A DNA stretch of 64,000 nucleotides from Eledone cirrhosa. Taxonomy: Eukaryota. The DNA is taken from positions 22,196,001 to 22,260,000 of the forward strand of contig OZ024756.1 in the NCBI GenBank assembly GCA_964016885.1, written 5' to 3'. Below, piece by piece: positions 43,726 through 44,391 of the stretch (positions within the stretch are counted from its first letter, which is position 1; every line of letters begins with the position of its first letter). The translations under genes and the position numbers were made by a program. A model generated the notes under the pieces. The model was not told the DNA's origin, ran no database searches, and saw only the letters and a program-made list of their open reading frames with translations.

Positions 43726-44386
43726 GAATCTAGGAGCAGTTTAGGTATGATACATTTTATTACTAATTATATCTAAATGTTTCTTCTCTCTTCATAATGT
43801 ATTTTTAACTCTGATACTGGTTCAGTCTAGTTCAACCGGATTGGTCTGTCCCAGTCATTCATTGAGCAACATCGGTGAAGTTGGCACCCTTAACTCACGG
43901 TTGGGTGCGGATGCATTCATGTATATGTGTGTCCCCGCATGTATCTGTGTGTTTCTAAATATATTGTTAATAACTCCCTCTGGTCGAGCAATCTTTGAAG
44001 TGTGGGGACTGCTGGAAAGCTTCCATTACACATACTTCTCGTCCCCTTCACCACCTCTTCTACGGCTTCGATATAAATACCCCCTCCGCCTCCGTGGTAT
44101 TTTCTTCGGGGTTATAAGAGGCTTAGCTCTGTTTCTCGACCGTTATATCGCGTGACTATCTCCCCCTCCGCCTTTTGGGATTCTTTCTCACGTCATGTAG
44201 ACGCGTTCTTGAGACTAGTAAAATGAGGTATCCTCTTGATAAGTCGGCAGACCTCGCAAGGACTCTATATCTTTATGATGTATTGTTTTTGTTTATGCCA
44301 CGAAACTACGTAGTCGAGGAATCTAGGAGCAGTTTAGGTATGATACATTTTATTACTAATTATATCTAAATGTTTCTTCTCTCTTC

Positions 44387-44391
<5 letters not shown>
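43726..44391 (+). mobile_element. Retrozyme-like element: 593-nt unit plus 73-bp terminal direct repeat, with an HHR at the unit junction, inside (TA)n
   Basis: 43726-43798 equals 44319-44391; the HHR cleavage site after 44315 lies 3 nt before the repeat. Confidence 0.8.
44231..44320 (+). ncRNA. Type I hammerhead ribozyme with U3-A8 covariant core
   Basis: TCCTC-TTGATAA-GT(C)GGCA...TGCCAC-GAAA-CTACGTAG-TC-GAGGA. Confidence 0.8.

Follow-up and report, generated by a model that had tools for sequence, protein, structure and literature searches.

The window, i.e. the whole 64,000-nt stretch of DNA that was analysed, comes from a host genome of 3.0 Gb and contains an insertion consisting of one arm of a 593-nt repeat unit (Table 1). 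Unit positions are numbered from the first base 3′ of the predicted hammerhead cut, which is +1. The 73-bp direct repeat which an earlier note on this DNA had described as bracketing the element is exact, its two copies being spaced by 593 bp, and the (TA)n tracts reported at both ends are also present, with two extra bases between the left tract and the element. Because both element ends lie inside (TA)n, a target-site duplication, which in animal non-LTR retrozymes exceeds 4 bp where it occurs, is unreadable. The unit has a GC content of 43% and folds better than 100 out of 100 shuffled sequences (z -4.5), and the window copy contains a single complete ribozyme. The longest stop-to-stop frame in the element is 134 aa and no ORF is conserved with the sister family presented below; the alignment to that family contains many 1-, 2- and 4-nt indels, so the element is considered non-coding, as had been proposed. 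The TATA-like box of the possible internal promoter carries a substitution in 44 of 63 units. Immediately to the left of the element, at 42659-43499, lies a 41-bp minisatellite (11.9 copies) flanked by two copies of a repeat of about 140 bp, 697 bp apart. Elsewhere in the window, the frames at 27906-28364 and 53367-53876 resemble what we take to be decayed LINE 3′ ends.

Table 1 Features of the insertion and its (TA)n surroundings, in positions of the window
Feature	Position	Strand	Remarks
Insertion, one 666-nt arm	43726..44391	+	Unit +4..593, then +1..+76; 3′ end at site A
5′ copy of 73-bp terminal redundancy	43726..43798	+	5′-truncated at +4
3′ copy of 73-bp terminal redundancy	44319..44391	+	Stops at site A
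(TA)n target tract, left	43679..43723		
(TA)n target tract, right	44390..44466		
Predicted type I hammerhead, U3-A8 core	44231..44320	+	Manual fold; predicted cut after 44315 (C17)
Site A (+76..80), fixed 3′ end used by the window copy	44386..44395	+	Merges into (TA)n; presumed start of reverse transcription
Site B (+242..250), second fixed 3′ end of the family	43964..43972	+	Internal, unused in the window copy
Possible internal promoter and transcript start	44072..44137	+	TATA-like box at 44072-44079; 5′-end cluster at unit 394-415

The element belongs to a large and young, non-coding, high-copy repeat family. A 22-mer at +53..74 has 7,874 exact matches in the genome (0 for the reversed control), and a BLAST-type search returned 1,615 candidates, of which the best 40 scored copies are 98-99% identical to the window element. 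The 46 insertions underlying the first 100 matches to the 22-mer on contig C1, all of which were read, make up the unselected sample, from which scaling gives a family of roughly 3,600 insertions and 5,350 arms. A best-BLAST set of 29 further loci (one duplicate dropped) is length-biased and was kept apart from this sample, while array statistics cover the 75 insertions of the two sets plus some extra loci. There are two main subfamilies, with about 1.5-1.9% difference internally. Arms longer than one unit make up 29/68 in the unselected set (7 exceed two units and 2 exceed three), the longest array reaches 4.9 units, and the length of the terminal redundancy varies freely between copies. A sister retrozyme family with a 580-nt unit, 74% identical to this one, yielded 1,815 candidates (L203-L227; an example is L219:1200-3000).

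The hammerhead had been proposed from the window sequence with a U3-A8 core and a cut after 44315, and the manual fold agrees with this. Stem I has 5 bp, the core U3-U4-G5-A6-U7-A8-A9 occupies 44236-44242, stem II is long with one bulged base, GAAA occupies 44302-44305, and stem III has 3 bp lying inside a perfect 10-nt palindrome (44305-44314). The catalytic fold is calculated at -22.5 kcal/mol, within 1.1 kcal/mol of the minimum free energy fold (-23.6 kcal/mol). Rfam scans gave no hammerhead match at the gathering threshold or at E<=10; because the Rfam models miss 44231-44320, the assignment was made by manual fitting and conservation. Compared with the sister family, 40 of the 44 core and stem positions are kept, while the alignment elsewhere is 74% identical (406/549). 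In an alignment of 8 copies of the two families, 93.4% of the paired cells are compatible with pairing, vs 32-59% in slid controls; this proportion is not above that of the shuffle control, and covariation amounts to a single double change, which is not above shuffles either. The prediction is thus of a type I hammerhead with a conserved core, three helices and an open helix I. The U3-A8 variant and a bulged stem II have been described for the ribozymes of Penelope-like elements (PLEs), according to the accessible text of PMC4209133. With tandem, non-coding units that each carry one predicted type I hammerhead, the family is retrozyme-like, in agreement with the designation first given to it.

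Two fixed 3′ ends and their pairing

Two places, site A (+74..82) and site B (+238..251), account for 35 and 33, respectively, of the 72 arm ends in the unselected insertions, the remaining 4 lying at other positions. B arms carry a 163-nt “tail” beyond site A. In the unselected and best-BLAST sets, 113 of 115 A or B ends run into TA repeats, and loose ends running into (TA)n at 43964-43969, which corresponds to site B, are found in public contigs. The single-arm insertions of the unselected set (20) are divided into 10 A and 10 B. The other 26 of the 46 insertions are head-to-head, with their 3′ ends outward, and 23 of them combine an A arm with a B arm; none is AA or BB, and 3 have one odd end (0.5^23 = 1e-7). 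The same combination occurs in 15 of the 16 head-to-head insertions of the best-BLAST set, in 9 of the extra loci read for ends at the cut (together with one AA block inside a duplicated satellite) and in three more of the extra loci, for an overall total of 50 A+B, 1 AA and 0 BB. The 18 inverted insertions found in 21 loci of the sister family comprise 16 A+B, 1 BB and 1 odd.

The joints between head-to-head arms mostly show 0-4 nt of microhomology. A fold-back origin of the inverted arms is ruled out by 13 of the 23 A+B pairs of the unselected sample, in which each arm includes sequence that its partner lacks. Of 38 A+B pairs, 31 have a B arm that extends past site A, which means that a single RNA serving both arms would need strand displacement or sequential priming; two identical RNAs of one source locus, held in an asymmetric complex, fit the pairs as well. 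For head-to-head PLE copies, Arkhipova et al. (2013, PMC3846280, in the portion available) invoked an antisense template and self-priming; the A+B data fit two-site priming on sense RNA better. Some predicted folds show sites A and B paired as opposite strands of a single RNA helix, but this was rejected as a general rule: such a helix is about half-populated in the circular fold and absent in the sister family and in the PLE described below, and pairing would be expected of any two TA-like sites. The “one unit plus a bit” noticed in the window can be accounted for by reverse transcription which starts at a fixed site 76-80 nt after the cut and stops mostly at random.

5′ ends, the predicted cut and the template

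The earlier note had equated the 5′ end of the insert with a self-cleaved RNA end and proposed to look for a pile-up of 5′ ends at the cleavage site, and most of this is unsupported. Among 112 arms (75 insertions), 3 ends lie within -5..+6 of the cut, where 2.1 are expected (p 0.34), and out of 100 approaches to the cut site, 93 pass through it and 7 stop in 593..+20 (3.4 expected, p 0.06). What does stand is a small excess at +1. Genome-wide patterns for clean ends, which require three non-matching bases upstream, gave 21 matches at +1, or 17 after subtraction of 4 from one duplicated block and 1 non-end, vs 6 at each of the control positions 526 and 578. At +4 there are 14 matches, of which 9 resemble a one-base loss inside a copy (judged on the printed match only), leaving about 5, and at +13 there are 20. 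The +1 excess is about 3-fold relative to three low controls (17 vs 6, 6, 5; p 0.0015), and is real but small, clean +1 ends being estimated at under 1% of arms.

The +4 end of the window copy itself is indistinguishable from background. Its cDNA might have run off an RNA cut by the upstream but not the downstream ribozyme, with 3 nt lost at joining. We consider this possible but unlikely: the +1 excess and the ends at +13 speak for it, as do arms that end exactly at the cut and exceed one unit by 80 or 247 nt (L002, L152, L154, L163, and likewise L213 and L223 in the sister family), but the +4 ends are at background and the stops near the cut in the unselected sample are not significantly in excess. 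The coincidence of the window's 5′ end with the cut is probably due to chance or to a minority event.

The roughly 3-fold excess at +1 is an indirect pointer to self-cleavage after C17. Of nine inverted insertions having one arm that ends at +1, five have a partner arm ending within 592..+21, the pattern predicted for two cDNAs running off the same cleaved RNA; among the indirect indications of in vivo cleavage this is the strongest. Another cluster of 5′ ends is seen at unit 394-415 (12 vs 4.5 expected, in an interval chosen post hoc). At the homologous spot in the sister family, 384-388, there are 7 ends in 5 nt where 0.3 are expected, and the match between this sharp cluster and that of the window's family may indicate a transcript start. 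The sister family also has 8 ends at +1..13 vs 2.1 expected; ends at the cut and at 384-388 are both commoner in it than in the window's family.

The sequences of the arms bear on the nature of the template. Units within one arm differ at 200 of 32,755 sites (0.61%) and the arms of one insertion at 210 of 27,619 (0.76%), while the median other insertion is about 3.2-3.4% different. Private alleles are present in one copy only in 107 cases (later mutation), in all copies of an insertion in 26, of which 18 span both arms, and in some copies in 5. At subfamily-diagnostic sites, 774 of 821 within-insertion comparisons agree and 47 disagree; across arms, the agreement is 364/390, with 226 expected if the arms were independent. 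The within-insertion distance is lower than that to the nearest other insertion in 32 of 82 pairs, equal in 24 and higher in 26. Much of the haplotype sharing is thus explained by a common source locus, the nearest other insertion often being no more distant. A stronger case for one template read repeatedly may be made from L146/L147, where the same 22-nt deletion occurs in two successive units of one arm; a pattern search for this deletion gave no further match in the family.

With arms exceeding one unit and reaching nearly five, the proposal of reverse transcription from a circular or multimeric 593-nt RNA is supported. A circle would be the simplest template, and long linear multimers would be a possible one. 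Among four contig sets of unspecified kind, one low-depth run yields a single 621-nt contig wrapping round the unit; tandem DNA would give the same, and the contig is not used as evidence. The alternative that two-site priming by a PLE takes place on linear read-through RNA of long homogeneous arrays, with no circle and occasional cutting by the ribozyme, seems to us rather unlikely. Arrays of four to five near-identical units do exist, some 5′ ends lie at the cut or the likely transcript start (with the paired ends near the cut in 5 of 9 insertions, and the sister family's two clusters), and a lizard PLE was inserted without needing ribozyme cleavage (PMC11167929, in its available part). Copying from a linear template can however only shorten arrays, yet arms longer than one unit number 29 out of 68, with just 2 longer than three units; the deletion repeated in successive units has no donor in the assembly; and the animal retrozymes tested so far gave abundant circles, as stated in the part of PMC7229834 available.

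Candidate helper and proposed mode of insertion

A search of the genome for GIY-YIG nucleases, in which 150 of 10,596 candidates were scored, led to a family named here PLE-1. Its locus L124 (contig C1 145868500-145877500, minus strand) is a 4,979-bp partial tandem containing a 938-aa frame with matches to GIY-YIG and, slightly below threshold at 28 bits, to RVT_1, and with a CX4CXXC linker before the nuclease, which is a feature of Neptune and Nematis PLEs (PMC8557442, available text). Relatives of PLE-1 are named from bivalve molluscs. Its ORF copies are mostly 98-99% identical; in L124 the frame opened by the upstream ATG extends for 143 aa before a stop, and no PLE-1 copy was shown to be fully intact. 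The U3-A8 core of the PLE-1 ribozyme has 6,944 pattern matches, the first 100 of which are all PLE-1. The 3′ ends of PLE-1 lie at +82 and +150, in (TA)n, and of 30 hand-picked inverted insertions 27 are A+B, the other 3 having one odd end. Most inverted PLE-1 copies consist of only 150-220 nt of leader, both arms halting near -73, about 30 nt after a TATA box, and among the first 100 matches the two ribozymes are within 90 nt of each other in 19 of 27 head-to-head pairs. This pile-up near -73 implies that the 5′ end of a linear template does mark insertions, and the retrozyme family is largely without such a mark.

PLE-1 and the retrozyme thus have in common the ribozyme core variant, the (TA)n target and the A+B rule. 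PLE-1 ends occur in 6 of the 75 retrozyme loci. In one of them, at L067:2409-2529, a retrozyme arm abuts a miniature inverted PLE-1 copy at the site-A end of the latter, without an intervening TA tract; the structure is either a chimera or a precise second insertion. Local scores of DNA similarity between the unit and PLE-1 were within the shuffle range in 4 of 4 tests, and no significant alignment was obtained between the unit and 50 loci from the GIY-YIG matches, in which pLTR homology was sought. With no significant homology, the helper is matched by behaviour only and not by descent. PLE-1 is a young Neptune-like PLE and a candidate helper.

It is quite improbable that the helper is another PLE family or a LINE. 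The lack of DNA homology to PLE-1 would be compatible with that, as would the presence of further long-ORF PLE families and the limitation of the scoring to 150 of the GIY-YIG candidates. PLE-1 is nevertheless the sole ORF-bearing U3-A8 family seen, the other PLE-linked ribozymes seen being C3-G8, and two genome-wide U3-A8 patterns returned, in the first 100 matches of each, only PLE-1, the present family, its sister and one more tandem family. A ribozyme pattern that kept stem I but allowed for a shorter stem II, which was part of the helper search, gave 6 matches vs 4 for the control, two of them being deletion copies. Site A also lies at a similar distance from the cut in both elements (76-80 vs 82 in PLE-1). 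As regards LINEs, they are not known to produce fixed internal twin ends.

Spread at the DNA level, by satellite-like unequal exchange or rolling-circle DNA transposition with the ribozyme as a passenger, is hardly credible: it would suit the tandem units and the local duplications of whole insertions (L061, L160/L168), but not copies scattered as short partial arrays in which the 3′ ends are fixed and the 5′ ends uneven, inversions joined at microhomology, the presence of some ends exactly at the ribozyme cut, or a ribozyme more conserved than the remainder of the unit.

Several observations on PLEs were made in passing. The window itself contains a short head-to-head PLE-1 insertion within a (TA)n tract (19190-19414), whose left arm stops at PLE-1 site A and has an internal deletion through the ribozyme, while the right arm stops at site B. 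The PLE-1 inverted insertion at L161:2494-2717 has arms ending at +1 and +3 of its own ribozyme cut, which is a hint that the PLE ribozyme may cut in vivo. Other PLE families with long RT frames are found at L126:1775-5062, L127, L132 and L133, and ribozyme-like motifs with the usual C3-G8 core at L126, L133, L129 and L139.

The family works like a PLE-mobilised element, having 5′ truncation, partial tandems, an inverted copy, a tail at one end and a (TA)n target. The element is probably a non-autonomous Penelope-like retroelement (an animal retrozyme) for which an RNA circle serves as template and a PLE supplies the reverse transcriptase-endonuclease in trans, where we infer the circle, the cleavage and the identity of the helper from copy number, two fixed 3′ ends, scattered 5′ ends, short arrays, head-to-head A and B arms sharing haplotypes, and a young PLE of like behaviour in the same genome. 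Tandem copies would be transcribed, perhaps from the internal promoter, and hammerheads, probably dimeric through the palindromic stem III, would release 593-nt monomers, which a host ligase would close into circles. The PLE protein would bind the RNA just 3′ of the ribozyme and cut both strands of a (TA)n tract, after which one DNA end would be extended from site A and the other from site B, with the assistance of AU-rich microhomology. Each cDNA would go round the template for about one unit on average. The two cDNAs would then be joined at 0-4 nt of microhomology, or one alone would be joined to the far flank, as in the window. A minority of events would use linear RNA, with ends at the cut or at the transcript start. 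As to self-cleavage, 8 of 9 Xenopus retrozyme dimers were without cleavage in vitro in the accessible text of bioRxiv 10.64898/2026.07.22.740005.

Relation to known elements

The element class is already known, and one-sided tails and inverted copies are known PLE features. The animal non-LTR retrozymes of PMC7229834 and bioRxiv 10.64898/2026.07.22.740005 are, as far as the available text of both sources goes, likewise non-coding tandem units with one type I hammerhead each and a GC content under 50%, dispersed as monomers to multimers, and a PLE helper and a circular intermediate have been proposed for them as well. They have been argued to be non-autonomous PLE derivatives (bioRxiv 10.64898/2026.07.22.740005; Li, Clavereau & Pollet). 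The 593-nt unit is inside the 51-972 bp range of that preprint and beyond the 150-450 bp first described. The core is of the PLE type here (U3-A8, with a bulged stem II), whereas theirs is canonical, and in contrast to the Xenopus families, for which 21 PLE matches are given, homology of the present unit to the candidate helper's pLTR is undetectable. The accessible parts of the two papers contain no mapping of insertion ends, start sites or inverted arms, and the preprint covers 31 vertebrates and 4 invertebrates, with no mollusc in its available part. An octopus repeat annotation mentions recently active Penelope families and, in the portion available, no ribozymes (PMC13282606).

Endonuclease-bearing (EN+) PLEs of the Neptune and Nematis types have, according to the available text of PMC8557442 and PMC3846280, the same partial tandems, 5′ truncation, inverted head-to-head copies, “tail” at one end, (TA)n targets and hammerhead near the end. 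The differences are that there is no ORF in the present element, that its tail is 163 nt long (vs 30-40 in theirs) and that reading goes round its unit more than once. Poseidon PAc of Anolis (Frangieh et al. 2024, PMC11167929, again in its accessible text) resembles the family in having two internal start sites of reverse transcription downstream of the ribozyme and an AT-rich target, both strands of which are cut and extended in vitro, and its protein is predicted to form a dimer. The start sites of this lizard PLE are 30-40 nt apart, lack homology to the target and, in vitro, serve the two strands equally, unlike sites A and B of the retrozyme, which have TA microhomology and are used one per end. 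Closest in ribozyme structure is the U3-A8 hammerhead of Schistosoma Cercyon, with a short stem I, a long stem II in which a base close to the 5′ end is unpaired, U3-A8 covariation and likely dimeric action (PMC4209133, available text); compared with minimal PLE hammerheads, the 3-bp stem III within a 10-nt palindrome exceeds the minimal motif. Plant LTR retrozymes are also non-autonomous and ribozyme-bearing, with circles of 600-800 nt, but their ribozymes are of type III and situated in two LTRs of fixed length, with 4-bp target-site duplications, while here the ribozyme is of type I and the redundancy is a by-product of freely varying length, so that the element was not identified as one of them.

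The integration of retrozymes, and head-to-head PLE insertions with a one-sided tail, are stated as open questions in the available text of bioRxiv 10.64898/2026.07.22.740005, PMC8557442 and PMC3846280. The worthwhile result of this analysis is an insertion rule of two sites and one template, common to the retrozyme, its sister and a Neptune-like PLE. Our literature search, with subscription papers and supplements outside its scope, found no report counting A+B pairing, showing a template shared by two arms or describing the family. Generalised, the rule would mean that PLE retrotransposition is asymmetric double priming, in which both strands of a (TA)n tract are cut by a single enzyme complex and the two cDNAs start from sites A and B, respectively, of one RNA, and that protein-free RNA circles, though not homologous to the helper, have arrived at the two-site signal by convergence and act as rolling-circle templates for both DNA ends simultaneously. 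We offer this tentatively, as a reading with slightly less in its favour than against it. If true, double priming explains head-to-head copies and the one-sided PLE tail in a single step. The genome holds thousands of young insertions of the retrozyme, the sister family and the candidate helper, all obeying the A+B rule, with evidence from haplotypes for a single template. As the RNA is short, an ORF of the helper is at hand and the start sites are predicted exactly, the rule is directly testable in vitro, with a bearing on PLE enzymes as RNA-templated writers of DNA. No host role is suggested.

A third family with a U3-A8 ribozyme was also encountered (L231:1496-1570; L243:1500-2390). Its apparent period is near 540 nt, and in L243 it is inverted and adjoins PLE-1-like sequence.
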